Source of the DNA: Thermoanaerobaculia bacterium
Lineage (GTDB): Bacteria > Acidobacteriota > Thermoanaerobaculia > Gp7-AA8
Length of the DNA stretch: 40,211 nt
NCBI GenBank assembly: GCA_035632455.1
Contig: DASQGS010000181.1
Coordinates: forward strand, 1 to 40,211
Direction of reading: 5' to 3'
The position numbers and the translations under genes are program-made. Position 1 is the first letter of the stretch. Each line of letters begins with the position of its first letter. A model generated the notes under the pieces. It was not told the DNA's origin. It did no database searches and saw nothing but the letters and a program-made list of their open reading frames with translations. This document shows positions 315 through 39,323 of this stretch, piece after piece.

Positions 315-402
315 CGGCTCACGCGAAGACGCGAAGGCGCGAAGCGAAGAAACCCTCAGAGCCATCTCGGGCACTAACACCTTCGTGTCTTCGCGTGAGC
401 CG
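315..402. repeat. Long hairpin, family CACGCGAAGACGCGAAGG, between the small ORF stop and the selD start
   Basis: CGGCTCACGCGAAGACGCGAAGG (315-337) is the reverse complement of CCTTCGTGTCTTCGCGTGAGCCG (380-402) apart from one G-T position, giving a 23-bp stem and a 42-nt loop. The left arm is built from 8-mers (ACGCGAAG ACGCGAAG GCGCGAAG). Nucleotides 317-343 are identical to 28748-28774. Confidence 0.85.
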
Positions 403-404
403 GG

Positions 405-668
405 TCATTCTCCAGTCACGGTCGCGTGCGCTGCCTCGCAGGCCGCGAGGATCTCCTGGTAGAGGTAGAAGGCGAGCTCGGGATCGATGGGCTCGGCGCT
501 GCCGCGGTTCACGATCTCTGCGATCTGCGAGGCGTAGTAGGACGCCGGCGGCAGGCGGTCTCCGCCGTCGCGCAAAATGCGAAATCCCACCGTCAACTCC
601 TCTTCGAGCTCCCTACGGAATGCTCCGCTCTCGAGGTCGTGGGCCAGGTTCGCGTAATCGACATTCAT
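405..668 (-). CDS. Hypothetical small protein (87 aa)
   Basis: Internal ATG at 668 of ORF 405..758 (MNVDYANLAHDLESGAFRRELEEEL...). It starts 27 nt after the stop of the upstream metalloprotease-like gene on the same strand. No recognisable family. Confidence 0.5.
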   Translation of the reverse strand: MNVDYANLAHDLESGAFRRELEEELTVGFRILRDGGDRLPPASYYASQIAEIVNRGSAEPIDPELAFYLYQEILAACEAAHATVTGE

Positions 669-694
669 GGCACGAGCAGAGCCGCGGCGGCCCG

Positions 695-1858
695 TTACTC
701 CTTCGCTCCGATTCTCGCCAGCACCGAGGGATCGGCGCCGTAGGCCACGCCGGCCCATGTGCCATTTCGCTGCGATCGGGCATCGATCCCACGGTCGCGG
801 AGAAACGCTAGATACGCCTGGAGGAACGTCGCCGCGTCAGCCTCGCTTTCCCACTGCGTCAAGACCAGCACGCTGGTCTCGCAGCGCGCATTCTGAACGA
901 CCGTCGCGCTGTCGCTGACCCACCCCGTCGACGCCGCCTCGCCGAGGAGGAAGCGCCAATGAAACTCGCCGAGATGCTCCACGACAAGCGTCCCGGGGAT
1001 GGTTGGTGGCAAATTGGACGGCACCGCTTTCGGGTCAGCGGCGACACGCGCAAAATACTCCGCGGGATGGAGGATCTCGCGCGTGGTTCGCGGCGGGTTC
1101 GCGTGGACGCGATCGAGTGCCGCCCATCCGCCGCGACGATATGCGTCGATCACGAACGCCAGCCCGTCGAGGTAGGGAAATTTCATGGATTCGACGAAGT
1201 ATCGCGGAGAGCCGGCGGGGATCGTTCGATCGGACGCGCCGGCGTTCTTGAGGGCATTCAGCAAAAAGTCGTTCTGCATCACCTCGTCCAGCGAACGTCC
1301 GCCCTTGTCGAGAATCGCCGCCATCATCACCAGGGACGCCTCGCCCTCGATCAGCGAATCGTAGGCCAGCTCGGCGTCCCAATCTCCCTGAATCCGTTCC
1401 AGTTTCTCGCCTGCGCCGAAGCGCTGATCCTGGAGCGCGTGCGTGAGCTCGTGAACGGCGACGCTCTCCTCGAGCATCGGCAGCTCCGCGCCCTCGAGCG
1501 CGGGAGGCGGTTTGTCCAACGAATAGAAGACGTGCGCCAAAGGATCGTAGAACGCGAGAATCTGCTCCTGATACAGGTCGAGGAGCTTATCGAGAAGATG
1601 GGGATCGTCATCCACGAGCTGCAGAGCGCGGAGGACCACGATGTAGTCATCCGGCGAGACCGGCATGCTCTTGAGCATCTGCTGCCTGAGGATGGCCGGA
1701 AGCTCCTCGCGCGTGACGGTGCGATGATCGACTTTGTGGAGAAACGAGCGCTGGCGCAGCCGCTCGACGGTGCGGATCTCGCTGCTCAGATCGGACGCTT
1801 GCGCCGCCGCGGCAGCGAGAAGGATCGAGACCAGAAGGCCTCGCAGGGTCACGGACAT
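695..1858 (-). CDS. Secreted HExxH zinc-metalloprotease-like protein
   Basis: ORF 695..1930. The likely start is ATG at 1858 (MSVTLRGLLVSILLAAAAAQA, a signal peptide). An HELTH (HExxH) motif lies in VAVHELTHALQDQRFG. Exact family not recognised. Confidence 0.7.
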   Translation of the reverse strand: MSVTLRGLLVSILLAAAAAQASDLSSEIRTVERLRQRSFLHKVDHRTVTREELPAILRQQMLKSMPVSPDDYIVVLRALQLVDDDPHLLDKLLDLYQEQILAFYDPLAHVFYSLDKPPPALEGAELPMLEESVAVHELTHALQDQRFGAGEKLERIQGDWDAELAYDSLIEGEASLVMMAAILDKGGRSLDEVMQNDFLLNALKNAGASDRTIPAGSPRYFVESMKFPYLDGLAFVIDAYRRGGWAALDRVHANPPRTTREILHPAEYFARVAADPKAVPSNLPPTIPGTLVVEHLGEFHWRFLLGEAASTGWVSDSATVVQNARCETSVLVLTQWESEADAATFLQAYLAFLRDRGIDARSQRNGTWAGVAYGADPSVLARIGAKE

Positions 1859-1907
1859 GCGCTGCTCAACGATTCGGTGTCGGACTCTCATTCCGGCCCG
1901 TTTTTCC

Positions 1908-1937
1908 TTGAAAGCCCGTCTTTGCCTCACTTAGAAT
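1908..1937 (+). promoter_or_regulatory. Candidate sigma-70-type promoter for the rsbW-like gene
   Basis: TTGAAA (1908-1913), an 18-nt spacer, then TAGAAT (1932-1937). The -10 element ends 17 nt before ATG 1955. It lies in the divergent spacer shared with the metalloprotease-like gene. Confidence 0.3.
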
Positions 1938-1954
1938 GCCCGGACCATCACTCC

Positions 1955-2407
1955 ATGGAACGTGACGACGAGAGGATCGAGATTACCATCAGCAGCCGGT
2001 TCGAGAACATCGAGCTGGTGCAGGTGATCGCGGAACATCTCTGCGAGAATTCCGGCGTGGATGAGGATGGGTCGCACTGGATCGGTATGGCTGTGCGGGA
2101 GGCGGTGGCGAACGCCATCAAGCACGGCAACAAGCTCGACATCCGAAAGAAGGTTCAAGCCACATTCGACCTGCATGGAAGCGAGCTGGAGATCCGCATC
2201 TCCGACGAGGGCGACGGGTTCGATCCCTCCGCCGTCGGCGATCCCCTGAACCCGCAGAACCTGATGAAGACGAGCGGACGGGGGATTTTCTACATGAAGA
2301 CGTTCATGGACCAGGTCGAGTACAGCTTCTCTCAGGGCGGCGGGACGTCGCTCATCATGACCAAGAATCTTGCAAAGAGCACCGGTATCGCAAACAGCAA
2401 AGCCTGA
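1955..2407 (+). CDS. Anti-sigma regulatory factor / serine protein kinase (RsbW/SpoIIAB-like, HATPase_c)
   Basis: C-terminal 150 aa of ORF 959..2407, starting at ATG 1955: MERDDERIEITISSRFENIELVQVIAEHL...AVREAVANAIKHGN...IRISDEGDGFDP...SGRGIFYMKTFMD. These are the N-, G1- and G2-box pattern of RsbW-type kinases. The upstream part of the ORF is antisense to the metalloprotease-like gene. Confidence 0.85.
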   Translation: MERDDERIEITISSRFENIELVQVIAEHLCENSGVDEDGSHWIGMAVREAVANAIKHGNKLDIRKKVQATFDLHGSELEIRISDEGDGFDPSAVGDPLNPQNLMKTSGRGIFYMKTFMDQVEYSFSQGGGTSLIMTKNLAKSTGIANSKA

Positions 2408-2455
2408 TATCCTCTCCGCCCTGGGCCGGGGACGTGAATCAAAGGAGAATAGACA

Positions 2456-2791
2456 ATGAAAGCCACTAGTCGAGAAGTAGCCGGAGTCGTGATCATCAGC
2501 CTGCAGGGCAAGATCATGATCGGCTCGGGCGACTCCCAACTGCGCGAAGCCATCACCGATGCGCTGAACAGTGGGAAGACCAAAATCCTCCTGGACATGA
2601 GCGGAGTCACGACCATCGACTCGTCCGGCATCGGCGAGTTGGTCGGCTCCTTCACCACCGTGACGAATCGCGGCGGGAAGTTGAAGCTCCTTCACCTCCC
2701 GGCCAAGCTCAACGAGTTGCTTCACGTAACCCAGCTCATCACCGTGTTCGAGGTGTACGAGAGCGAGGAAGAAGGCATCAAGAGCTTCTAG
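2456..2791 (+). CDS. STAS-domain anti-sigma-factor antagonist (RsbV/SpoIIAA-like)
   Basis: 111 aa: ...VVIISLQGKIMIGSGDSQLREAI...KILLDMSGVTTIDSSGIGELVG.... A conserved phosphorylatable Ser lies in the DSSG motif. AAAGGAG ribosome-binding site upstream. Confidence 0.9.
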   Translation: MKATSREVAGVVIISLQGKIMIGSGDSQLREAITDALNSGKTKILLDMSGVTTIDSSGIGELVGSFTTVTNRGGKLKLLHLPAKLNELLHVTQLITVFEVYESEEEGIKSF

Positions 2792-2819
2792 CCGCGGGAT
2801 TACGCCGAGTCTCACCGAA

Positions 2820-2846
2820 GCGGGGGCGTCGGCCTCCGCTTTTTCA
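2820..2846 (+). terminator. Rho-independent terminator after the STAS gene
   Basis: GCGGGGGC (2820-2827), loop GTCG, GCCTCCGC (2832-2839): an 8-bp stem with one G-U pair, followed by TTTTT (2840-2844). Confidence 0.6.
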
Positions 2847-3230
2847 TTTGAGCCCGCACCAGGTCTGCGCCTCCCGGGGCGTGATGCCGTCCAGCCGCCG
2901 TAGGCGCAGCAGCGCTGGGCCGAGCCCTGCACGGATCGCCAGCCAATGCGTGGCCGCGCGTGATGGCCCGCCGCCTCCGGCGAGACTCCGAAATACCCAA
3001 GCCATCCGTAGGAAAACGCCGATCGGCGGCTAAGACGGCTCGCACAGGCCGCGCAATCGTAACTCGTTTGTTTTACGTCTGTTAACGAGTCTCGCGGCTT
3101 GTAGGCATTTGCCCCACTCTCATATCGAAGGGTGGCAATCGTCACGGGCCGAAGTGCGAAACGCTACGTCCCGCCGGATTTTTTGGGGCGAACCTGCGCC
3201 GATATCAACATCAGGTCTGTATTTACGCAA

Positions 3231-4982
3231 ATGCCTACAAATGCAGCACTTAATGACGTATCGACCATCATGAATTCCTTCGTATTCATGTTGCCGTCGA
3301 TGCAGCACACCATCCGCCCGGTGATGTTGAGCCCCGTCGACCCTGAGGTTCTTCCATTTCTCGCCGTTCTGATAGCCGTTCTGCTCGTGGTCATGGCCCG
3401 GCGCGAGCGTTTCGCACATCTCAGCGGAGCCCAGCGATTGCATGGCATGGCGCCCCTCTCGACCGGCGTGCCGGTTCTGGCGATCGGCGCCGGAGAGGCA
3501 TTCAGCGCACGTCCTGAGCGCGAACCAGAGATCCCTTCGCACGAGACCAGCGACGCGCTCGCCGATCTCGTCACCCTCTCCGGCGATTGGGTGTGGGAGT
3601 GCGATGCCGAGGGACGCTACACGTTCGCGGGAACGCAGATTCACGAGATCCTCGGCTATGCGCCGGAAGAGGTCATCGGAAAGACGGCGTGCGACCTTGC
3701 TCTGCCCGAGGAAACTCGGCGGATTCGAAGCCTCCTCCTTCCATTGCTCAGAAGCCCGCGATCCTTCGCCCGAATCGAAGTGACCGCCCTCCATCGCGAT
3801 GGCCGGCCGGTTCTGCTGGAAGTCAGCGGCATGCCATTGATCGGCTCGGGCGGTCAAGCGAACGGCTATCGCGGCCTGGTGCGCGACGTGACTGAGCTGG
3901 AGGCGCACAAGCGGGAACGACAACTCCTTGCGATGGCCATCGAGAACGCCGGCGACGTCGTCATAATCACCGACCGCGAGGGGAGGATCGAATACGTAAA
4001 TCCGGCTTTCGAGACCGTCACCGGCTATCGCCGCAAGGACATCGAGGGCGCGACGCCTCGGATTCTGAAAAGCGGCCGGCAACCGGCTGAGTATTACGAG
4101 AAGATGTGGAGCCGCCTTCTCGCCGGCGAGAACTGGAGCGGCCACTTCGCCAATCTGCGGCGCGACGGCAGTCCCTACTACGCCGATGCAACCGTGTCGC
4201 CGATACTCGATGAGCAGGGTGCGATCACCGGCTTCGTCGCAGTCCAACGCGACGTGACCGAGAAGATGTCCCTTCTCGACCGTCTGCACTCGGCGATGGA
4301 GATGGAGCGGTTCGGGAACCTGGTCAGCGGCGTGGCCCACGAGGTTCGCAATCCTTTAAATGCCATCCAGGCTGCGGTGGGCGCGCTCGAGCTCGAATTC
4401 GGCTCTGAGGCCGAGGCCGGACCGCTGTTCGGCATCGTGCGCTCGCAAGTCGGCCGGCTTGCGCGGCTCATGAGCGATCTGCTGGTCATCGGGAAACCGG
4501 TAGATCAGGCACTTCTTCAAATCAGACCGGTCGCCGAGGTGGTGTCGGAGGCGTTGGCCGTGTGGCGGGAAGCGCATCCCGACGTAAACGAGCGCCGTGT
4601 CCGCTTCACCGCAGGTAGCGGAGCGACCGTCAACGTTGACGTCGCACGCCTGCACCAGGTCGTCGTCAACCTGCTCGACAACGCTCTCCAGCACAGTGAT
4701 TCGGACAGCGAGATCGTCCTCGGTGTCGATGACATCCTGGACCGCTCGCGGATCTTTGTACGCGATGCCGGCTCCGCGGTGATCCCATCGCTCATCGCTC
4801 GGGTATTCGACCCTTTCTTCACCACTCGTCCCGGCGGGACCGGGCTCGGCCTGAGCCTCGTCAAGAGCATCGTCGAGCAGCATGGCGGGACCGTGTCGAT
4901 CCGCAACAACGAGCCACCACCCGGCTGCACCGTGGAGGTAGTTCTTCCGCCGGTGCCCGATAGCGAGAGGAGACGCGCATGA
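3231..4982 (+). CDS. PAS-domain sensor histidine kinase (one TM segment, tandem PAS, HisKA, HATPase_c)
   Basis: ORF 3132..4982. H-box SGVAHEVRNPLNAI. G-boxes DAGSAV and GTGLGLSLVKSIVEQHGG. Two PAS-like segments (WVWECDAEGRYTF..., IENAGDVVIITDREGRIEYVNPAFETVTGY). The start is ambiguous: GTG 3132, ATG 3231 or ATG 3270. Confidence 0.9.
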   Translation: MPTNAALNDVSTIMNSFVFMLPSMQHTIRPVMLSPVDPEVLPFLAVLIAVLLVVMARRERFAHLSGAQRLHGMAPLSTGVPVLAIGAGEAFSARPEREPEIPSHETSDALADLVTLSGDWVWECDAEGRYTFAGTQIHEILGYAPEEVIGKTACDLALPEETRRIRSLLLPLLRSPRSFARIEVTALHRDGRPVLLEVSGMPLIGSGGQANGYRGLVRDVTELEAHKRERQLLAMAIENAGDVVIITDREGRIEYVNPAFETVTGYRRKDIEGATPRILKSGRQPAEYYEKMWSRLLAGENWSGHFANLRRDGSPYYADATVSPILDEQGAITGFVAVQRDVTEKMSLLDRLHSAMEMERFGNLVSGVAHEVRNPLNAIQAAVGALELEFGSEAEAGPLFGIVRSQVGRLARLMSDLLVIGKPVDQALLQIRPVAEVVSEALAVWREAHPDVNERRVRFTAGSGATVNVDVARLHQVVVNLLDNALQHSDSDSEIVLGVDDILDRSRIFVRDAGSAVIPSLIARVFDPFFTTRPGGTGLGLSLVKSIVEQHGGTVSIRNNEPPPGCTVEVVLPPVPDSERRRA

Positions 4983-5359
4983 CGAGCTGCCTTCGCTCGC
5001 GAATTCTAATCGTGGACGACGAGAGCGAGACCGTCGCCGCGCTGGCGCGCCTGTTTCGCAGGCTGGACTGCGACATCGACTCGGCGGGAACGATCGAGGA
5101 AGCATCGCGAACGATCTTGGATCGCGACTATCGGGCCATCGTCACCGATCTTCGCCTCACGCCTGGAACCGGCGAAGAAGGACTGGAGGTCCTTCGGCGC
5201 GCCCGCGAGAAGAACCTCTCCACGGAAGTCATCATCGTCACCGGGTACGGCAATCCATCCCTGATGACGAAGGCCTTCGACCTCGGCGCTGCTTACTACT
5301 TCGAGAAGCCGGTGCATCCGGCTCAGCTCCTCGGAGCGCTGGAGGAGTTGTGTCGGTAG
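4979..5359 (+). CDS. Stand-alone response-regulator receiver protein
   Basis: 126 aa with ILIVDDE...IVTDLRL...VIIVTGYG...YFEKP receiver motifs. Its ATG overlaps the kinase stop (ATGA at 4979-4982). Confidence 0.9.
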   Translation: MTSCLRSRILIVDDESETVAALARLFRRLDCDIDSAGTIEEASRTILDRDYRAIVTDLRLTPGTGEEGLEVLRRAREKNLSTEVIIVTGYGNPSLMTKAFDLGAAYYFEKPVHPAQLLGALEELCR

Positions 5360-6152
5360 TCGTTGGCGCGTCGCAGGATCGAGTCGTCGCCGATCTGGTG
5401 CGGCGAGGCTTTCATTCCGTTGTCTTTCAGCCGATCCGCCGCCTCGACGACGGCACGATCTACGGCTTCGAAGCACTGATGCGCGGACCGACCGGAACGC
5501 TGCTCGCCTCGCCGGGCCGCATTTTCTGCAGATCGAGCATCGACTGGACCCTGCTGCACAAGCTCGATGTGGCCTGCTTCTTCTCCTCGTTGAGGCTGGG
5601 CCGCTTGGCCAGTGTGGAGCAAACCCTGTTCATTAATCTGCACGGCGAGACGCTGTTGCGATACTCAAACGGGGCGGATGAGGTGCGGCGGCTGCTCGAT
5701 CAGCTAGCCATCGCGCCGTCCAGGATCGTCATCGAGCTCTCGGAGATGACCGAGCGCACGCACGTTCGAAGTATCGGCCGGACCCTGCGACCTCTGCGCG
5801 CGGCCGGAGTGCGGCTCGCGCTCGACGATATCGGCGCCCGCTACCCGTGGCTGCACCACATGCTTTGGCTGGAGCCCGATTTCCTGAAGCTCGACCGCAG
5901 CTTCGTGCGCGGCGCAGCCCGATCATCGCGACGGCGCAATCTGATCGTCGGCATGGTCCCGTTCGTCCGAGGCTGCGGCGCGGAGATCATGCCGAGGGTA
6001 TCGAGACGGCAGGCGAGCGCGACGCCCTTCGCGATGCTGGAATCACGCTCGGCCAGGGGTTCCTCCTCGGCTCACCCTTGCCGGTGCAGGAGTGGTTCCC
6101 GGCGGATGCCGCGTCCATGGACCGGACTCGGGTCGCGGGGTTGATGGAATGA
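5350..6152 (+). pseudogene. EAL-domain c-di-GMP phosphodiesterase interrupted by a 1-nt frameshift near 5989-5990
   Basis: Frame A (5350..) carries FQPI...YGFEALMRGP...FINLH...ELSE...LALDDIG...LKLDRSFVRG...LIVGMVPFVRGCGAEI. Frame B (ORF 5847..6152) continues with AEGIETAGERDALRDAGITLGQGFLLGSPLP. Adding one base after ATCAT (5986-5990) restores a complete EAL domain. Confidence 0.8.
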
Positions 6153-6270
6153 GGAATCCTTGGAGCGGCAGGAAGTCTTCGATCGTGGTCTCCTATCTTC
6201 CCTGGATTCGACAGGATGCAATCGAAAACTGTCGGCACAACGGACATAGGAAAATGCCTAAAAGCGCTCC

Positions 6271-6292
6271 AAGGTTACAGTTTCGTAACCTT
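6271..6292. promoter_or_regulatory. Perfect palindrome AAGGTTAC-N6-GTAACCTT upstream of the che operon (candidate operator)
   Basis: AAGGTTAC (6271-6278), AGTTTC, GTAACCTT (6285-6292). It is AT-rich in a GC-rich genome and ends 80 nt upstream of ATG 6372, in the only sizeable spacer before the operon. Confidence 0.4.
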
Positions 6293-6371
6293 TGTGAACT
6301 ACGATGCGCCTGCCGCTACTGACGCTCGTTCCCGCGAGCCGTGAGTGCAACTCCAACGTGAGGAGAAAGAG

Positions 6372-6749
6372 ATGGAAACCCGAAAGAAGATTCTGCTCGT
6401 CGATGACTCGTCGACCATCTTGATGATGGAGCGGATGATCCTGGCCAAGGGTTTGTACGAGCTCATCGTCGCGAAGGACGGCGAAGAGGCGGTGACCAAA
6501 GCGGTGACAGAGCGGCCGGACCTGATTCTCATGGACGTGATCATGCCGAAGATGAATGGCTTCGAAGCCTGCCGGAAGATCCGCCAGCACGGCGAGATCG
6601 GAGAGACGCCGATCATCATGGTCACCACGCGCGGCGAGGGGGCGAACGTCGAGACCGGGTTCGAGAGTGGCTGCAACGACTACGTCACCAAGCCCATCAA
6701 CAGCCTGGAGCTCCTCGCCAAAGTGCGGAGCTACCTCAGTACGCACTAG
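6372..6749 (+). CDS. CheY-like single-domain response regulator
   Basis: METRKKILLVDDSSTILMMERMIL...DLILMDVIMPKMNGFEACRKIR...PIIMVTT...DYVTKP. GAGGAGAAAGAG ribosome-binding site directly before ATG 6372, which is internal to ORF 6345..6749. Confidence 0.9.
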   Translation: METRKKILLVDDSSTILMMERMILAKGLYELIVAKDGEEAVTKAVTERPDLILMDVIMPKMNGFEACRKIRQHGEIGETPIIMVTTRGEGANVETGFESGCNDYVTKPINSLELLAKVRSYLSTH

Positions 6750-21051: not shown

Positions 21052-22422
21052 ATGAACAAGCTCCGCACCTTCGTACTGCTCTTCGCGCTCACGATCGGCT
21101 GCAAGCCGATGGCCGAATCGCAGACCATCTCGGGTCAGCCGAGACAGGAACATGCGCAGATCCCGCCGACGGTGAGCGCGGTTCGCCGCACGCCGGTGGT
21201 GGTGGTTGCCCACGACATTCTTCCGTGCGTCGTCAACATTCAGACCGAGGCCACGATCCGGCGGCGAGAAGTCGACCCCTTCTTCGACCCGTTCAGCATC
21301 TTCGGAGGCCGCGACCGCGTGTATCAGTCGCAATCGCTGGGCTCGGGATTCGTCTGGTCCTCCGACGGGATCGTCGTCACCAACAATCACGTGGTGGAAG
21401 GTGCGTCGCGGATCACGGTCAACTTCAATGACGGTTCGCAGCTTGCCGCGAAGCTGATCGGCGTCGATCCTGACAGCGATCTGGCCGTGTTGCGCGTCGA
21501 TTCCAGAAAACTGTCGGCCGCGCCGATCGGCACGTCGTCCGACCTGATGATCGGCGAGACAGTCATCGCCATCGGCAACCCGTTCGGCTTGAGCGGCTCG
21601 GTGACCACGGGCGTGGTCTCTGCTTTAGGCCGGTCCGTGCCGTCGAAGGAGGCGGGGCGGACCTTCACGGATTTCATCCAAACCGACGCTTCGATCAATC
21701 CCGGCAATTCCGGCGGGCCCCTCGTCAACATCGAAGGGCGCGTCATCGGCATCAACGTCGCGATCTACGCGCAAGCGCAGAACATCGGCTTCGCCATCCC
21801 TGTCGACCGGGCGAAGAAAGTGATTCAGGATCTGCTCCGCTACGGCGAGGTCCACAGCGCCTGGATCGGGGCGGTCACGGCGACGCTGACGCCGGAGGAG
21901 GCGAAGCGCATCGGCGCGCATGCGCAGAAGGGCGCGCTCGTGGCGCGCGTGTTCGCAGGCTCGCCTGCGCAGGCCGCGGGTCTGCGCGCCGGAGATGTGA
22001 TCGTGGCCGTCAACGGCAAGGGCGTCGATTCGCGCGAAGCCTTCTCCACGCTCACGGCCACTGCATCGATCGGACAGGCCGTCGAGGTGACGTTCATGCG
22101 CGAGGGTGGCAGCTCCCGCACTTCCGTCCGTCCCGGCGAGCCGCCGGCGAACCTCGGGCTGCGGATCCTCGAAGACGTGGCCGGCCTGCGTGTCAGCGAT
22201 GAGGGGAGGAACGTCGTCATCCAGAGCGTGCTCCGCGGATCTCGCAGTGAAAACATCGGCCTCGCCCCGGGCGACGTCATCGTCGGCATCAACGGCTCGG
22301 AGGTCCACTCGGTCAAGGATCTGAACAACGAGCTGAGCAAAGCCGCGGAACGCTCATCGATCGTGCTGTCAGTCGCGCGCGACCGGTACATCTACAACCT
22401 GACGTTCCCGATGGGCGTGTAA
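21052..22422 (+). CDS. htrA: HtrA/DegP-family periplasmic serine protease with two PDZ domains, lipoprotein-type signal
   Basis: ORF 21046..22422. ATG 21052 gives MNKLRTFVLLFALTIGC (lipobox). Catalytic triad contexts are VTNNHVV, DSDLAVL and GNSGGPLVN, followed by two PDZ-like segments. Confidence 0.95.
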   Translation: MNKLRTFVLLFALTIGCKPMAESQTISGQPRQEHAQIPPTVSAVRRTPVVVVAHDILPCVVNIQTEATIRRREVDPFFDPFSIFGGRDRVYQSQSLGSGFVWSSDGIVVTNNHVVEGASRITVNFNDGSQLAAKLIGVDPDSDLAVLRVDSRKLSAAPIGTSSDLMIGETVIAIGNPFGLSGSVTTGVVSALGRSVPSKEAGRTFTDFIQTDASINPGNSGGPLVNIEGRVIGINVAIYAQAQNIGFAIPVDRAKKVIQDLLRYGEVHSAWIGAVTATLTPEEAKRIGAHAQKGALVARVFAGSPAQAAGLRAGDVIVAVNGKGVDSREAFSTLTATASIGQAVEVTFMREGGSSRTSVRPGEPPANLGLRILEDVAGLRVSDEGRNVVIQSVLRGSRSENIGLAPGDVIVGINGSEVHSVKDLNNELSKAAERSSIVLSVARDRYIYNLTFPMGV

Positions 22423-22546
22423 GAAACCAGAAACCAGAAACTAGAAACTAGAAACTAGAAACTAGAAACTGGAAGTAGAAAGTAGCTGCCGCCTTCTGGT
22501 TTCTGGTTTCTGGTTTCTGGTTTCTAGTTTCTGGTTTCTGGTTTCC
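22422..22546. repeat. Heptamer-repeat hairpin: 7 x AGAAACY facing 7 x GGTTTCT, filling the convergent junction
   Basis: The left arm (22422-22470) is AGAAACC x2 then AGAAACT x5. The right arm (22498-22546) is GGTTTCT x4, AGTTTCT, GGTTTCT, GGTTTCC. The arms are about 49 nt with a loop of about 27 nt. The element starts at the last base of the htrA TAA and ends 3 nt before the stop of the minus-strand lipoprotein gene. Confidence 0.92.
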
Positions 22547-25204: not shown

Positions 25205-25278
25205 GCCGGCTTAGCGCGGCGTTGAATTAACACGAAAGCGCGGAATTGTCATCCCGCAGAGGGTGGGCGGGACGGAGG

Positions 25279-25312
25279 AAGCAGTGATCAGTGGTCAGTG
25301 GTCGGTGGTCGG
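25279..25312. repeat. CAGTGGT heptamer array (family 1), no inverted partner
   Basis: AAGCAGTGATC AGTGGTC AGTGGTC GGTGGTC GG, directly downstream (in gene sense) of the GT2 stop at 25317. It shares the AAGCAGTGATCAG head with 31428-31440 and with the reverse complement of 37880-37897. Confidence 0.8.
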
Positions 25313-25316
25313 CGCG

Positions 25317-26252
25317 TCATCCTGAGCGTGATTCTCCCGGCATCGATCGCTCCAATAGCCGCGGACCCTGCCTCCGCAGTCGCAGCGCCCCGAAATATCC
25401 TCTCGCCTCTCCGATCAACTTCGCCGGAATCCACCACGGATGCCGGAGCAGATAGCGAGTGGCGATGGTCTTCTGCAAACGGGTTGCCGCGTACCTCCAC
25501 ATCGGCCCGCGGAAGTGTTGAAGGGCGAAGTAGTAGTCCCCGATCGAATGCGCCGCCGACGATGTGCGGCGATGGTCGCCGTAGGTGCGGACGCCGCCGG
25601 ATGCGATCCTCAGATGTCGAATACCGGCGCCCGGCTCGAACCAGATCGCTCCACCGGCATCGACGACGCGGCGGGCGAAATCGGTCTCGAACCGATATGC
25701 CGTGCCGATGTAGTTCTCGTCGAACCCACCAAGCGCGAGGGCCCGCTCGCGAACGACGGAGAGATTGCCGGCCATGACGTTCTCCACGCGGGTACCGGCG
25801 CTGGAGTTGAACAGGAAGTCGAGATCGGGAATCTGCCCTGGCCGAGCAGCCGGTCGCTCGAACGACACCGGCGTCTCTCCCGGCTGAAGGATCTGACCGA
25901 CGACCGCCCAGATCGATGCGTCGCCATGGCGCAGAGCGTGCTGCACCACGAGGTTGCCGATCGGCTCGATGTCGTCATCGAGAAACAGCACGAGCGGTTT
26001 GCCCGCCAGCAACAGCGCAACGTTCATCGCCCTCGGAATCGAAGGCCGGTCGAGCCGCTCCCACCGAATCGTTCCTGCGGCGCTCCACGCTTCAAGACGG
26101 GCGAGGATCTGCTCCGGATGCTGCGCGGTTTGATCGACAACGAGAATCTCCCCAGGCGGATCAGGGAGCTCCAGCAGGCGGGCGATCGTCTCGACGAGAA
26201 TCGGACCACGGTTGTAGCTCGGAATCGCGACCGTCACGTCCGATGCGTGCAT
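25317..26252 (-). CDS. Family 2 glycosyltransferase
   Basis: ATG 26252 gives MHASDVTVAIPSYNRGPILVETIARLLEL...ILVVDQT...FLDDDIEP (GT-A DxD region). The last 8 codons (PGESRSG-stop) are encoded by a GCGTCATCCTGAGCG REP-like sequence. Confidence 0.85.
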   Translation of the reverse strand: MHASDVTVAIPSYNRGPILVETIARLLELPDPPGEILVVDQTAQHPEQILARLEAWSAAGTIRWERLDRPSIPRAMNVALLLAGKPLVLFLDDDIEPIGNLVVQHALRHGDASIWAVVGQILQPGETPVSFERPAARPGQIPDLDFLFNSSAGTRVENVMAGNLSVVRERALALGGFDENYIGTAYRFETDFARRVVDAGGAIWFEPGAGIRHLRIASGGVRTYGDHRRTSSAAHSIGDYYFALQHFRGPMWRYAATRLQKTIATRYLLRHPWWIPAKLIGEARGYFGALRLRRQGPRLLERSMPGESRSG

Positions 26253-26259
26253 GCGAGGG

Positions 26260-26496
26260 TCACCTTTGTGATCGCCACTGATGGCCGCAATCGAGACAGA
26301 CGCGCTCGTTGAGCACAAGGTGAGCGATGACGATCGCCGCGATCATGATTCCAGCAACCAGACCTGCATTCAGCTTCGCCGCAAGGACAGCCAACAAGCC
26401 CGCCGCGACAAGCGCGAGATACACCCCCCAGGTCCTCCGGCCGCCGCGCCTGACGTGAGCGGAGTCGCAATTCGGGCAGGTGCGGTGGTCAGTCAT
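26260..26496 (-). CDS. Small membrane protein with split zinc ribbon (CPNC ... CLDC)
   Basis: [19 protein letters not shown]...two hydrophobic helices...ERVCLDCGHQW. The stop lies 7 nt before the GT2 ATG, and its ATG overlaps the stop of the upstream small ORF (ATGA at 26496-26493). Confidence 0.6.
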   Translation of the reverse strand: MTDHRTCPNCDSAHVRRGGRRTWGVYLALVAAGLLAVLAAKLNAGLVAGIMIAAIVIAHLVLNERVCLDCGHQWRSQR

Positions 26497-26672
26497 GCCG
26501 CGCGCGTGCATGTCTCGGCAGTTTGCGGGATTCGATCGAGCAGGGCGATCAATTCCTCGTCGACGTCGCTGGGCTCCAGGAAGCCGGCGAGCGCGACATA
26601 ATTGGTGTGGACACTCTCGATCTCGATTGCCGTGAGCATTTGACCGCCGCTGATTGTATATTCACTCATCAT
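26493..26672 (-). CDS. Possible small ORF (59 aa), first gene of the minus-strand GT2 operon
   Basis: [59 protein letters not shown]. This is the only part of ORF 26493..27221 that is not antisense to the SDR gene. It is translationally coupled (ATGA) to the zinc-ribbon ORF. No homology recognised, and its ATG overlaps the divergent SDR ATG. Confidence 0.35.
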
Positions 26673-28747: not shown

Positions 28748-28784
28748 GCTCACGCGAAGACGCGAAGGCGCGAAACGACCTCAG
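28748..28784. repeat. Half-copy of the CACGCGAAGACGCGAAGG family in the tsaD/valS divergent spacer
   Basis: GCTCACGCGAAGACGCGAAGGCGCGAAACGACCTCAG. The first 27 nt are identical to 317-343 and both copies end in ACC(C)TCAG. No inverted partner nearby. Confidence 0.75.
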
Positions 28785-31427: not shown

Positions 31428-31436
<9 letters not shown>

Positions 31437-31467
31437 TCAGCGGTTAGTGGTGATCAGTAGGTGGTGG
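31428..31467. repeat. Degenerate CAGTGGT-family array overlapping the valS stop
   Basis: CAGCAGTGATC AGCGGTT AGTGGTG ATCAGTA GGTGGTG GGC. The TGA of the CAGTGA head (31434-31436) is the valS stop codon. Confidence 0.6.
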
Positions 31468-32621: not shown

Positions 32622-32736
32622 CGTCATCCTGAGGCGGCGGCACCCCGGAGGAGTAGAGCGCGCCGAAGGATCTCCTTGCGCCAACGGCGTTCCTGCCGAG
32701 GAGATCCTTCGCCGTCTACGCGGCTCAGGATGACGC
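32622..32736. repeat. Inverted pair of GTCATCCTGAG...GGATCTCC REP-like units (BIME-like) in the birA/qor convergent junction
   Basis: The left unit spans 32622-32678 (CGTCATCCTGAG...GAAGGATCTCCTTG). The right unit spans 32698-32736 (GAGGAGATCCTTCGCCGTCTACGCGGCTCAGGATGACGC). Both terminal boxes are perfectly complementary. The 19-nt spacer contains CGCC-AAC-GGCG. Confidence 0.88.
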
Positions 32737-33771: not shown

Positions 33772-33815
33772 GTCAGTGGTCAGTTAGTGGTCAGTGGTCA
33801 GTGGTTAGTGGTCAG
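33772..33815. repeat. CAGTGGT heptamer array (family 1), about 6 units
   Basis: GTCAGTGGT CAGTTAGTGGT CAGTGGT CAGTGGT TAGTGGT CAGG, located between the qor start and the GGDEF stop (33828). No inverted partner. Confidence 0.85.
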
Positions 33816-37525: not shown

Positions 37526-37684
37526 ATGGCCGAGAACAAGGCTCACGAGCTATTGCGGAAGCATAACGTCACCGTTGAGGACATCAAGGAAGGGCGCACG
37601 ACCATGCACCACCTGCGCCGTATGGTCCACGCGGACGAGCTTCCGTTCGACGTGTTCAGGGCGCTCGTGAAGATGCGCAGGTAG
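37526..37684 (+). CDS. Possible small protein (52 aa)
   Basis: ATG 37526 follows GAGGAGAA: MAENKAHELLRKHNVTVEDIKEGRTTMHHLRRMVHADELPFDVFRALVKMRR. No family recognised. Confidence 0.4.
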   Translation: MAENKAHELLRKHNVTVEDIKEGRTTMHHLRRMVHADELPFDVFRALVKMRR

Positions 37685-37698
37685 GGCAGCGAGCTGTG

Positions 37699-37897
37699 AA
37701 AGCAGTGAGCAGTTGTCAGTTGTCGGGAAAAGCAGTGAGCAGTTGTCAGTTGGTCGGTGGTCAGCAAGGCTGGCGCTCGCGGTCGCTGCAACGACTCACC
37801 GCTCTCCAACCCGAAGACAAAGGCTGATCGCCGCTCTTCTGACAACTGACCACTGCTTCTCCTGACCACTGACCACTGACAACAGATCACTGCTTCA
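37699..37897. repeat. ~200-nt compound palindrome of the CAGTGGT/CAGTTGT family filling the convergent junction before mpl
   Basis: The left arm carries AAAGCAGTGAGCAGTTGTCAGTTG twice (37699-37722 and 37729-37752, 24/24 identical) and then GTCGGTGGTCAG. The right arm (37839-37897) is CTGACAACTGACCACTGCTTCT CCTGACCACTGACCACTGACAACAGATCACTGCTTCAG, an imperfect reverse complement with two sub-units. The mpl stop (37887-37889) lies inside the AAGCAGTGA head. Confidence 0.88.
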
Positions 37898-39323
37898 GCC
37901 ACTCCAGAATCTTCTCGTGCACGCCGCCGAAGGCACCCGAGGACATGATCAGCACCACGTCGCCTTCCTTCGCCTCGGAGGCCACATGTGCGGCAAGCGC
38001 ATCGAAATCGTCGATCTGTTCCGCGGGGATTCCATCGGCAACGAGGCGGCGGATGATGGTCTCCACCGACATCATCTTGTCGATGCCGTAGCGGGTCTCG
38101 TAGCGGCCGCGGTGGAAGACCGGCCCGATCACCAGGCGATCGGCCGCGTGGAATGCATCGACATACGCGGGCTCGAACTCCTTGCGCGCCGAGGAGATCG
38201 AGCGCGGCTCGAACAGCGCCCAGATTCGCTGACCCGGATAGCGCTTTCGCGCGCCGTCGAGCGTCGTGGCGATCGCTGTCGGGTGGTGCGCGAAGTCGTC
38301 GATCACCGTGACTCCTCGCTCCACGCCGCGTACTTCCATCCTCCGCTTGATCCCTCGGAACGATTCCAGCCCGCGCTGGATCTCCTCGGCTGAGAGTCCC
38401 GCGTCGTGCGCGACCGCGATACAGGCCAGAGCATTGAGCACGTTGTGCTGCCCAGACAGCGTGGTCGTGAAGCGAAACCACTCGCGCCCTTCCCGCTGCG
38501 CTGTAAACGCCGCACCGCTGGGAACGAGGTCGATTCCGCCGGCGGACCAGTCGTTCGTCCGCGCCATCCCGAATGTGAGCCAGCGCGCTCTGGCGTCGCT
38601 GCGAAGGCTCAGTACCCGCGCATCGTCGCCGTTCGCAACGATCAAGTCGCCCGGCGCGACCCGCTGCACGGCCAGCCGAAACGCGTCGACGATCGCGTCG
38701 AGGCTGGGGAAAATGTCGGCGTGATCGAACTCGATGTTGTTGACGATCAGCGAGCTGGCACGGTAGTGCAGAAACTTCGGTCCCTTGTCGAAGAATGCGG
38801 TGTTGTACTCGTCTCCCTCGATGACAAAGTCCGGACCTGTGCCGAGCTTGAAGTTCTGGTCGAAGTTGAGCGGGATACCGCCGACCACCATGCTCGGATC
38901 GCGTCCCGCCGCCTCCAGAATCCAGGCCATGAGCGACGTGGTCGTCGTCTTTCCGTGCGTGCCGGTTACGACGATGGAACGCTTACCCTTGATGAAAAGG
39001 CCATAAATCGCCTCCGGCATCGATGTGTACGGCAGGTCCATCTCCAAGGTAGCAGCCGCCTCGGCGTTCGTGGACGCCGCCGCGTTCCCAATCACCACCA
39101 GGCCGGGCTGTGACCTCTCCAGGTGCTCTTTCGTATATCCTTCCAGCACGGGGATCCCGAGTCGTTCCAGGTATGTCGACATCGGGGGATAGACATGCTC
39201 GTCGGAGCCCGACACCCGGTAGCCGCGTTGCTGTAGCATGCCGGCCAGCGAAGCCATCGCCGTCCCGCAGATCCCGATCAGATGGACACGCTCGACGGGG
39301 CTAGGTTCTTTGACGTGAGGCAT
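37887..39323 (-). CDS. mpl: UDP-N-acetylmuramate:L-alanyl-gamma-D-glutamyl-meso-diaminopimelate ligase (Mpl; MurC paralogue)
   Basis: 478 aa: VHLIGICGTAMASLAGMLQQRGYRVSGSDEHVYPPMSTYLERLGIPVLEGY (compare E. coli Mpl ILGICGTFMGGLA...GSDANVYPPMSTLLE), GTHGKTTTTS. Confidence 0.9.
   Translation of the reverse strand: MPHVKEPSPVERVHLIGICGTAMASLAGMLQQRGYRVSGSDEHVYPPMSTYLERLGIPVLEGYTKEHLERSQPGLVVIGNAAASTNAEAAATLEMDLPYTSMPEAIYGLFIKGKRSIVVTGTHGKTTTTSLMAWILEAAGRDPSMVVGGIPLNFDQNFKLGTGPDFVIEGDEYNTAFFDKGPKFLHYRASSLIVNNIEFDHADIFPSLDAIVDAFRLAVQRVAPGDLIVANGDDARVLSLRSDARARWLTFGMARTNDWSAGGIDLVPSGAAFTAQREGREWFRFTTTLSGQHNVLNALACIAVAHDAGLSAEEIQRGLESFRGIKRRMEVRGVERGVTVIDDFAHHPTAIATTLDGARKRYPGQRIWALFEPRSISSARKEFEPAYVDAFHAADRLVIGPVFHRGRYETRYGIDKMMSVETIIRRLVADGIPAEQIDDFDALAAHVASEAKEGDVVLIMSSGAFGGVHEKILEWLKQ

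Follow-up and report, generated by a model that had tools for sequence, protein, structure and literature searches.

Short tandem repeats with a 7-base unit (STRR) have been known from intergenic DNA since 1990, and to our knowledge no origin or function for bacterial repeats of this kind is accepted. Proteins of the PF05635 family are found in rRNA intervening sequences (IVS), and Avd in diversity-generating retroelements. The rRNA IVS elements are ORF-bearing stem-loops with terminal inverted repeats of ~28 bp; they are cut by RNase III, occur sporadically and have been proposed to be mobile (PMC4990558). Heptamer repeats near stop or start codons have been described in Xanthomonas (GGGAATC, with 70-75 convergent plus/minus pairs) and Nostoc (GGGGAYT) (Rehm 2015, PMC4692102), and in Beggiatoaceae (TAACTGA; PMC4679880). 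CGTC-tagged REP dimers have no dedicated transposase and are known inside larger palindromes (Di Nocera 2013, PMC3733652).

The DNA analysed here, a stretch of 40,211 nt which we call the window, is contig C181 of a Thermoanaerobaculia (Acidobacteriota) metagenome-assembled genome (MAG) of 4.2 Mb in 540 contigs, with 64% GC and 82% completeness (G000). Its ValRS is 74-75% identical to homologues in soil Thermoanaerobaculia MAGs. The window contains arrays of the heptamer CAGTGGT, which resemble the repeats of Xanthomonas, Nostoc, Beggiatoaceae and the STRR in being tandem 7-nt repeats of few units, intergenic, close to a stop or start codon and patchy in taxonomy. The unit contains CAGT/ACTG, as STRR1 and STRR3 of cyanobacteria presumably also do. 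The same is true of TAACTGA in Beggiatoaceae (PMC4679880). Unlike the published heptamer repeats, those with CAGTGGT are hosted by Acidobacteriota and also by phages, and they come with a PF05635 gene and a demonstrated insertion site; our literature search found no paper linking heptamer repeats to PF05635 genes or showing an insertion site. The unit also lacks GGG tracts, so the quadruplex reading of the Rehm 2015 heptamers is not transferable to it.

The original prediction had placed five such arrays in the window, all at gene 3' ends and four of them on the plus strand, and we find them as described, at 25279-25312, 31428-31467, 33772-33815, 37699-37763 and 37839-37897, with only the last inverted. 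Allowing up to 2 mismatches, the two-unit sequence CAGTGGTCAGTGGT is found 12 times in the window, whereas 100 shuffles predict 0.04. By our own gene calls and the ORF lists, all five arrays lie 0-15 nt from a stop codon. They make up one complete hairpin (37699-37897) and three solo arms, and the corresponding features are as follows.

25277-25312 (array from 25279), minus strand: solo arm of the CAGTGGT family, with head AAGCAGTGAT and then CAGTGGT CAGTGGT CGGTGGT CGG on the plus strand
25316-25327, plus strand: end remnant GTCATCCTGAGC of a REP-like CGTC/TGTC-tagged palindrome
31428-31467, plus strand: degenerate solo arm of the 5' type, CAGTGAT CAGCGGT TAGTGGT GATCAGT AGGTGGT
33772-33815, plus strand: solo arm of ~6 units, 12 nt from the stop of a minus-strand GGDEF gene
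37699-37763, plus strand: compound 5' arm of the window's single complete hairpin, with two sub-arrays, each AAAGCAGTGAGCAGTTGTCAGTTG...
37764-37838, no strand: hairpin loop of unique sequence with a small inner stem, from sequence and folding
37839-37897, minus strand: 3' arm with ACCACTG/ACAACTG units on the plus strand, from sequence and folding

The complete element (37680-37905) folds at -113 kcal/mol with a z of -6.45, and none of 200 shuffles was as good. Its 5' arm begins at 37699, 15 nt past the stop of a conserved 52-aa ORF on the plus strand, and at its other end the mpl stop (37887-37889) lies inside the 3' arm, within the head TGAAGCAGTGATC of the minus-strand reading. The loops of the window's own copies hold no ORF, and hence no PF05635 ORF. 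For the three solo arms, folding does not surpass that of shuffled sequence (z +0.5 and +0.7 for 25277-25312; no significant fold, z +0.4 and +1.3, for 33772-33815), and a search for hidden partners of solo arms, by minimum free energy pairing with the sequence downstream, gave no discrimination. The mRNA of the GGDEF gene would carry the ACCACUG-type reading of its array. The valS stop (TGA, 31434-31436) lies within the head of the array at 31428-31467; the ValRS of relatives ends at the same place, where a related MAG (L005) has a hairpin of GTCGGGA units. The conserved head that had been proposed for the family, AAGCAGTGA[T/G]C, is present exactly or with 1 mismatch in five of the six window sub-arrays, but it is missing at 33772 and occurs at only 5 of 87 loci genome-wide; the exact head is thus largely local to the window. 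TGAAGCAGTGG also heads one CAGTGGT copy in another genus, and a looser AGTGA[G/T] unit lies upstream of 27 of the 87 arrays.

The window also holds two sister elements.

22422-22546, no strand: element of the AGAAACC/GGTTTCT heptamer family with the same architecture; the family also has a PF05635-bearing member (G000 contig C301)
23257-23353, no strand: element of the AAAGCAG/CTGCTTT family, abutting the lepA stop; a CAGTGGT hairpin occupies the same site in G018, a genome of another genus

An 8-mer tandem family (ACGCGAAG, ~3 copies) is present at 321-344 and 28752-28774, and the related MAG L006 likewise contains 8-mer arrays.

Genome-wide mapping, which had been proposed as a check, revealed a dispersed family whose copy number is far above chance. 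The exact 14-mer CAGTGGTCAGTGGT occurs 60+57 times, and the CAGTGGT pattern read backwards had no match in 41 genomes. Tandem Repeats Finder reported 461 period-7 arrays of at least 3 copies in G000, against 214 for period 6 and 113 for period 8. These period-7 arrays sort into at least eight main unit families, of which CAGTGGT is the largest. A stricter scan gave ~95 CAGTGGT loci, 90 of the 95 outside called genes. Same-direction gaps hold 41 loci, divergent gaps 13 and convergent gaps 7; another 5 fall within called genes, and 29 sit at contig ends. So large a share at contig ends points to breakage of the assembly by the repeats. As it comes to nearly a third of the loci, and includes the 5' arm of the gene-bearing copy on contig C308, the true copy number is probably higher than counted. 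An array usually has 3-4 full units (just three in 55 of 87) and typically ends in CGGTGGT-CAG, with a range of 3 to 18 units.

Most typically, (CAGTGGT)n and (ACCACTG)n face each other as an inverted pair across a loop that varies, with a handedness that has almost no exceptions. In G000, 35 of the 95 loci have a partner within 350 nt, and CAGTGGT comes first in all of them (35:0); for another 24 the nearness of a contig end prevents a decision, and the remaining 36 are solo arms inside contigs. In G018, 20 of 21 sampled loci are paired, with a handedness of 20:0. Metagenome loci (80 loci, 37-71% GC) gave 22:0 and viral contigs (58 contigs) 34:2, for a total of 111:2. Across all heptamer families (109 pairs) handedness is fixed per family in ~98 of 100. 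The outer and inner junctions are genome-specific, AGTGAG...CAGC in G000 and GTTGT...CAGTT in G018, and the loops are unique sequence, unrelated between copies. CAGTGGT arrays were found in 3 of the 24 genera of the bacterial family that were sampled.

An inverted pair is strand-symmetric, and its orientation is therefore uninformative, so that the earlier argument from orientation is limited to the window's three solo arms. Within this limit, the absence of a gene-direction preference is borne out genome-wide, since solo arrays in same-direction gaps are 8 sense and 13 antisense. The suggestion of a replication-oriented motif found no support: the orientation of solo arrays is unrelated to contig GC skew (31 of 57) and to the strand that carries most genes (28 of 57).

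The loops of CAGTGGT hairpins in G018 (L108, L111, L112, L120, L126) often contain nested arrays, of CAGCGGC-type units and AATCACT heptamers. We take AATCACT to fit the WATCACW heptad bound by the inc18 omega repressor, which may be a coincidence. Units that occur together with CAGTGGT at viral and metagenome loci (L127-L264) are CAGTAAT, CAGTGAT, CAGTTGA, CAGTGGC and CAGTTGT; all retain CAGT, and the last three bases vary.

The arrays are joined at 22 of 87 loci to a second repeat, in the order array and then GTCATCCTGAG, mostly through a CAGCAC junction. GTCATCCTGAG is the end of a palindrome of ~112 nt that has 120 complete copies (dimers) in G000, and one of these lies in the window.

32623-32734, minus strand: complete REP-like palindrome, a CGTC-tagged dimer occupying the gap between the convergent birA and ADH genes, with 91% identity to the query copy

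This copy folds at -40.3 kcal/mol with a z of -5.05. Among 119 copies, GTCATCC is preceded by C in 55% and by T in 44%, and in the fold of the core unit the 4-nt tag is free and the stem is of 5+4 bp (ATCCT/GCCG). With its terminal CGTC/TGTC tag, A-T stem start, head-to-head dimers and no linked transposase, the core is a CGTC-tagged REP dimer, in a variant whose loop has 6 nt rather than 4-5 and whose stem is interrupted. The 120 dimers show no target-site duplication of 3 nt or more, and a literature search with the string GTCATCCTGAG returned unrelated papers only. Arrays are absent from 96 of the 120 cores; cores occur in 18 of 24 genera, and G018 has many arrays and few cores. Core and arrays are thus separate modules. 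Like REP, BIME and CGTC-REP sequences, the elements lie at 3' ends, at <20 bp from ORFs, their termini provide stop codons and they form inverted dimers around variable spacers; like CGTC-REPs they have no dedicated transposase, and the GTCATCC core is nested in CAGTGGT arms as REP dimers are in larger palindromes. In contrast to REPs, the heptamer arm is not a palindrome and bears no GTAG or CGTC tag, and only the ~112-nt core fits (PMC3733652).

One such junction lies in the window. The array 25279-25312 ends 7 nt from the stop of a minus-strand GT2 gene, and the stop itself (TGA, read as TCA at 25317-25319) is supplied by the REP-like core remnant GTCATCCTGAGC. The junction type array-CGGCGC-GTCATCC matches that of the common CAGCAC-GTCATCC junction. 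Read on the minus strand, 25277-25312 is the ACCACTG-type 3' arm of a composite element that has been truncated, and together with GTCATCCTGAGC the array forms the right half of such an array/REP-like composite. That the GT2 3' end merges into half a repeat element, from which it takes its stop, suggests the breakpoint of a rearrangement or of an insertion. The window's solo arms are most simply taken as leftovers; one stands at the edge of the GT2 gene, and an inverted 52-aa ORF lies beside the complete hairpin. Palindromes are known sites of breakage.

The gene order around these sites also varies. The GT2 glycosyltransferase gene (25317-26670) lies here between lepA and an SDR gene, which in G003 are adjacent and divergent, ~80 nt apart, without it. 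The conserved 52-aa ORF (MAENKAHELLRKHN...VKMRR; 37526-37684, plus strand) is on the strand opposite to mpl, whereas in G003, G004 and G018 it stands between mpl and a GreA-fusion gene with all three on one strand; the small inversion relative to these genomes adjoins the heptamer palindrome at 37680-37905.

Paired elements are positioned closely by stop codons. In same-direction gaps their median distance from the upstream stop is 4 nt and 43 of 56 start within 20 nt, and convergent gaps are filled stop to stop. At the lepA 3' end, G000 has an AAAGCAG pair, G018 a CAGTGGT pair and G004 a GCCAACA run, with no array in G003, G012 or G001. At the mpl 3' end, G000 has a CAGTGGT pair and G003 an AACATTC...GAATGTT pair, with no array in G004 or G018. 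The array sequence is not conserved at a site, and occupancy is recurrent.

A gene is found inside some of these hairpins. Matches to PF05635, the 23S rRNA IVS protein family with an Avd-like four-helix bundle, occur at 4 places in G000 and at 15 in five relatives. Of 14 genes examined, 13 lie between complementary heptamer arrays: two are CAGTGGT-armed (G000 C308 and G018 C45) and the other 11, of 12, have arms of other units, in six genomes (two in G000).

G000 C308: AAGTGAT CAGTGCT CAGTGGT, PF05635 gene, long ACCACTG array
G018 C45: (GGTCAGT)5, PF05635 gene, (ACTGACC)4
G000 C387:6624-6935: PF05635 gene with AATGCAG arms, the unit of another abundant G000 hairpin family
G000 C301:14516-14812: PF05635 gene with AAACCAG arms, the unit of another abundant G000 hairpin family
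Other genera: PF05635 genes with other heptamer units as arms

The 5' arm of the C308 copy is cut by the contig end. A third CAGTGGT-armed PF05635 gene, at metagenome locus L261, has the opposite orientation relative to its arms. The orthologous PF05635 proteins of the G000 and G018 copies are only 52% identical, which ties with a protein that has different arms, and in the PF05635 tree the proteins do not clearly track the heptamer units. No PF05635 gene was found in G000 (82% complete) for the GAATGTT, CAATTTT and ACGAGGG families.

The two CAGTGGT-armed copies precede the same gene, CoA-transferase subunit B (83% identity), and the C45 copy directly follows subunit A, that is, it lies between scoA and scoB. 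In genomes without the element this junction is TAAgcgATG (G003) or TAAccgATG (G015), a spacer of 3 nt, and 11 nt in G001. Since the junction is filled in G018 and G000 and has only 3 nt in G003 and G015, the element has been inserted there, between translationally coupled genes. No target-site duplication is visible when the filled site of G018 is set against the empty sites of G003 and G015, a comparison of one site across genera. The expectation that the arrays behave as inserted DNA is thus upheld by presence and absence at one site across genera, but mobilisation by a RAYT, which had been suggested along with it, is not.

In G004 (C21, locus L320) a REP-like dimer (TGTCATCCTGAGCCGCGCAGACGGCGAAGGATCC...GGGATGACA) occupies the CoA-transferase A/B gap; one and the same 3-nt spacer has thus received two palindromic elements that are unrelated.

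In phages the same placement is commoner than by chance. Of 22 viral pairs, 21 have a stop within 15 nt, where random placement gives 22%, and 14 span the distance from a stop to a start of the same direction, where it gives 7%. The viral contig L130 (IMGVR_UViG_3300047586_000106) carries at 330-6460 a phage tail operon with a CAGTGGT hairpin in every stop-to-start gap. Its genes encode a tail terminator, tail proteins and a tape-measure protein; in each gap the first arm comes 1-4 nt after the stop, a short loop separates it from the second arm and 2-6 nt follow before the ATG, and most of the downstream genes have no visible Shine-Dalgarno sequence. A late operon is incompatible with strong termination in each of its gaps.

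From these observations we would describe the CAGTGGT family as IVS-like insertion elements of mRNA spacers, with arms built of heptamer arrays and, in most copies, without an ORF. The five window loci probably represent a single intact copy, together with three remnants that each keep one arm, of a dispersed family of hairpin elements with heptamer arms, the full form of which has a PF05635 gene. As in the 23S rRNA IVS with a PF05635/S23p ORF of Coxiella and Leptospira (PMC4990558), the gene-bearing copies enclose a small four-helix-bundle gene within the loop of a long inverted-repeat stem, the distribution is sporadic, suggesting horizontal spread, and the element is tolerated inside an essential transcript; the IVS has also been proposed to be mobile, with its ORF contributing. 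The long stem is seen in the fold of 37680-37905 and in the arms on both sides of the gene in G018 C45 and G000 C308. Unlike the rRNA IVS, CAGTGGT elements are all in spacers of protein genes at stop codons, their stem arms are tandem heptamer arrays, and copies without an ORF vastly outnumber those that bear the gene. RNase III cutting is a feature of the IVS, and for the CAGTGGT elements we only infer it. The single 23S rRNA gene of G018 has 2,953 nt against a 2,925-position model and contains no insertion (that of G000 is not assembled). MITEs and their autonomous parents offer a second parallel, in that many short gene-less copies share their ends with a rare gene-bearing copy and site occupancy varies among relatives; they differ in that here no target-site duplication is seen (one site), the loops are unrelated and the encoded protein is not a known transposase.

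A complete element sits directly at a stop codon and fills the gap to the stop or start of the next gene. On the IVS-like reading, gene-less loops would relate to the PF05635-bearing member as MITEs do to a transposon, and each heptamer family in these genomes would have its own PF05635 gene. The element would be transcribed with its host gene, and its 25-60-bp stem may then act at the RNA level like the stem of an rRNA IVS, either through RNase III cutting or as a protective 3' hairpin, which would let it sit harmlessly between coupled genes. Spread would be by a copy mechanism, possibly with the PF05635 protein acting on the arms, and solo arms would be inert leftovers of broken or rearranged palindromes. 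Several observations count against the scheme: 13 of 95 loci are in divergent gaps (by our own gene calls), the unrelated loops argue against simple transposition of whole elements, G000 (82% complete) has 3-4 PF05635 genes for at least eight heptamer families, the PF05635 proteins do not clearly track the units, and the 5' arm of the C308 copy is cut off. At the RNA level, the hairpins show no sense-strand advantage in folding, no covariation between arms and no T-tract, and terminator-like sites are not enriched.

A broader version is that heptamer-armed hairpins form a distinct mobile class that crosses phyla, an 'mRNA intervening sequence', whose PF05635/Avd-like protein recognises its own arms and helps to copy or maintain the element, and which RNase III excises from transcripts. 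We put this forward tentatively, as a possibility that we would not at present favour.

A different reading, which we consider rather unlikely, is that the heptamer runs are DNA-level arrays bound by a protein, on double- or single-stranded DNA, with the PF05635 protein as one candidate binder, and that they function or spread on DNA and not on RNA. Precedents exist: rows of 7-bp heptads are the target of the inc18 plasmid omega repressor, and Avd, which is related to PF05635 proteins, binds both nucleic acid and a reverse transcriptase. In favour of such binding, the unit stays the same in different genera, in phages and in contigs that range from 37 to 71% GC, with the enclosed protein down to 52% identity, each family may have a PF05635 gene of its own, and solo arms that do not fold persist at stop codons. 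Tests for RNA pairing point the same way. In 56 hairpins the sense strand folded better in 27 and the antisense strand in 28, which gives no sense-strand advantage. The arms show no compensatory changes, whether compared in unit register or at best-register identity: identity between the two arms of a locus is no higher than between arms taken from separate loci (0.929 against 0.935 in G018, 0.885 against 0.889 in G000, 0.910 against 0.911 in viral and 0.942 against 0.951 in metagenome loci). Each arm is thus held near the family consensus independently, which leaves no positive signature of selection for RNA pairing and fits a constraint at the level of sequence. Rfam contained no matching family, giving only chance matches to microRNA precursors on long hairpins. 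Against DNA binding, at least eight unit families in one genome would require several specific binders, the exact placement at stops and starts is a landmark of the transcript, and the PF05635 tree does not clearly track the units. The DNA-level element of the original prediction is accordingly retained in part: the family is above chance, without gene-direction bias, insertion-like, fused to a REP-like core at 22 of 87 loci and without arm covariation, but its proposed forms as a RAYT target or a replication motif find no support, and the protein-binding array is kept as the rival just described.

That the hairpins are selected factor-independent terminators, replacing sites with a hairpin and U-tract in this lineage, seems to us improbable. 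They do start a few nt past stops and fill convergent gaps, and different heptamer hairpins stand at the 3' end of one gene in different genera; canonical terminator-like sites are not enriched in the region (13 against 11.8 expected), and none is found at the arrays except a small hairpin (25258-25239) downstream of one of them. However, hairpins are also present between scoA and scoB, which encode subunits of one enzyme, and in every gap of the phage tail operon, where termination would abolish expression of the downstream gene. There is moreover no T-tract past the ACCACTG arms, and many orthologous 3' ends have no element.

Growth of microsatellites by slippage, locus by locus and with no common origin, is very improbable. 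The range of 3 to 18 units per array, the variant units that differ between the two arms of a locus and the over-representation of heptamer simple repeats in some bacteria (PMC4692102) would suit it, but one unit in one handedness recurs at >100 loci in unrelated contigs (111:2), together with the genome-specific junctions of G000 and G018. Its variants fare no better, since the arrays show no GC-skew or gene-strand bias expected of replication-oriented motifs, and the CAGTGGT unit has GG only, where a G-quadruplex needs four GGG+ tracts and the stable quadruplexes of Xanthomonas need GGG. Mobilisation as REP/REPIN elements by a RAYT (an IS200-like Y1 transposase) is largely refuted and the least probable of all: the intergenic 3'-end bias, the inverted dimers with variable spacers, the stop-supplying termini known from REPs (PMC3733652), the fusion of many arrays to a CGTC-tagged REP-like dimer and 8 Y1_Tnp loci in G000 speak for it, but a PF01797 search of G000, five relatives and five viral records showed no association, none of the 8 G000 loci had arrays or REP-like ends within 1.5 kb, the array-rich G018 (86 array matches) and the five array-rich viral records have no Y1_Tnp gene, the tandem arms lack self-complementarity and the GTAG tag, and 96 of 120 cores are without arrays and distributed differently across genera.

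In practical terms, CAGTGGT elements break MAG assemblies (29 of 95 loci at contig ends), supply stop codons and mark points of rearrangement. With hairpin arms of near-invariant handedness, insertion at stops and starts and an enclosed PF05635 gene, the 7-base repeats are now tied to a gene-bearing and probably mobile element, and their origin and function become testable. If the 'mRNA intervening sequence' reading were true, it would explain the puzzle of the heptamer repeats (STRR and their relatives) and give PF05635 proteins a function, as parts of an element that occupies the stop/start junctions of operons and phages at no cost.
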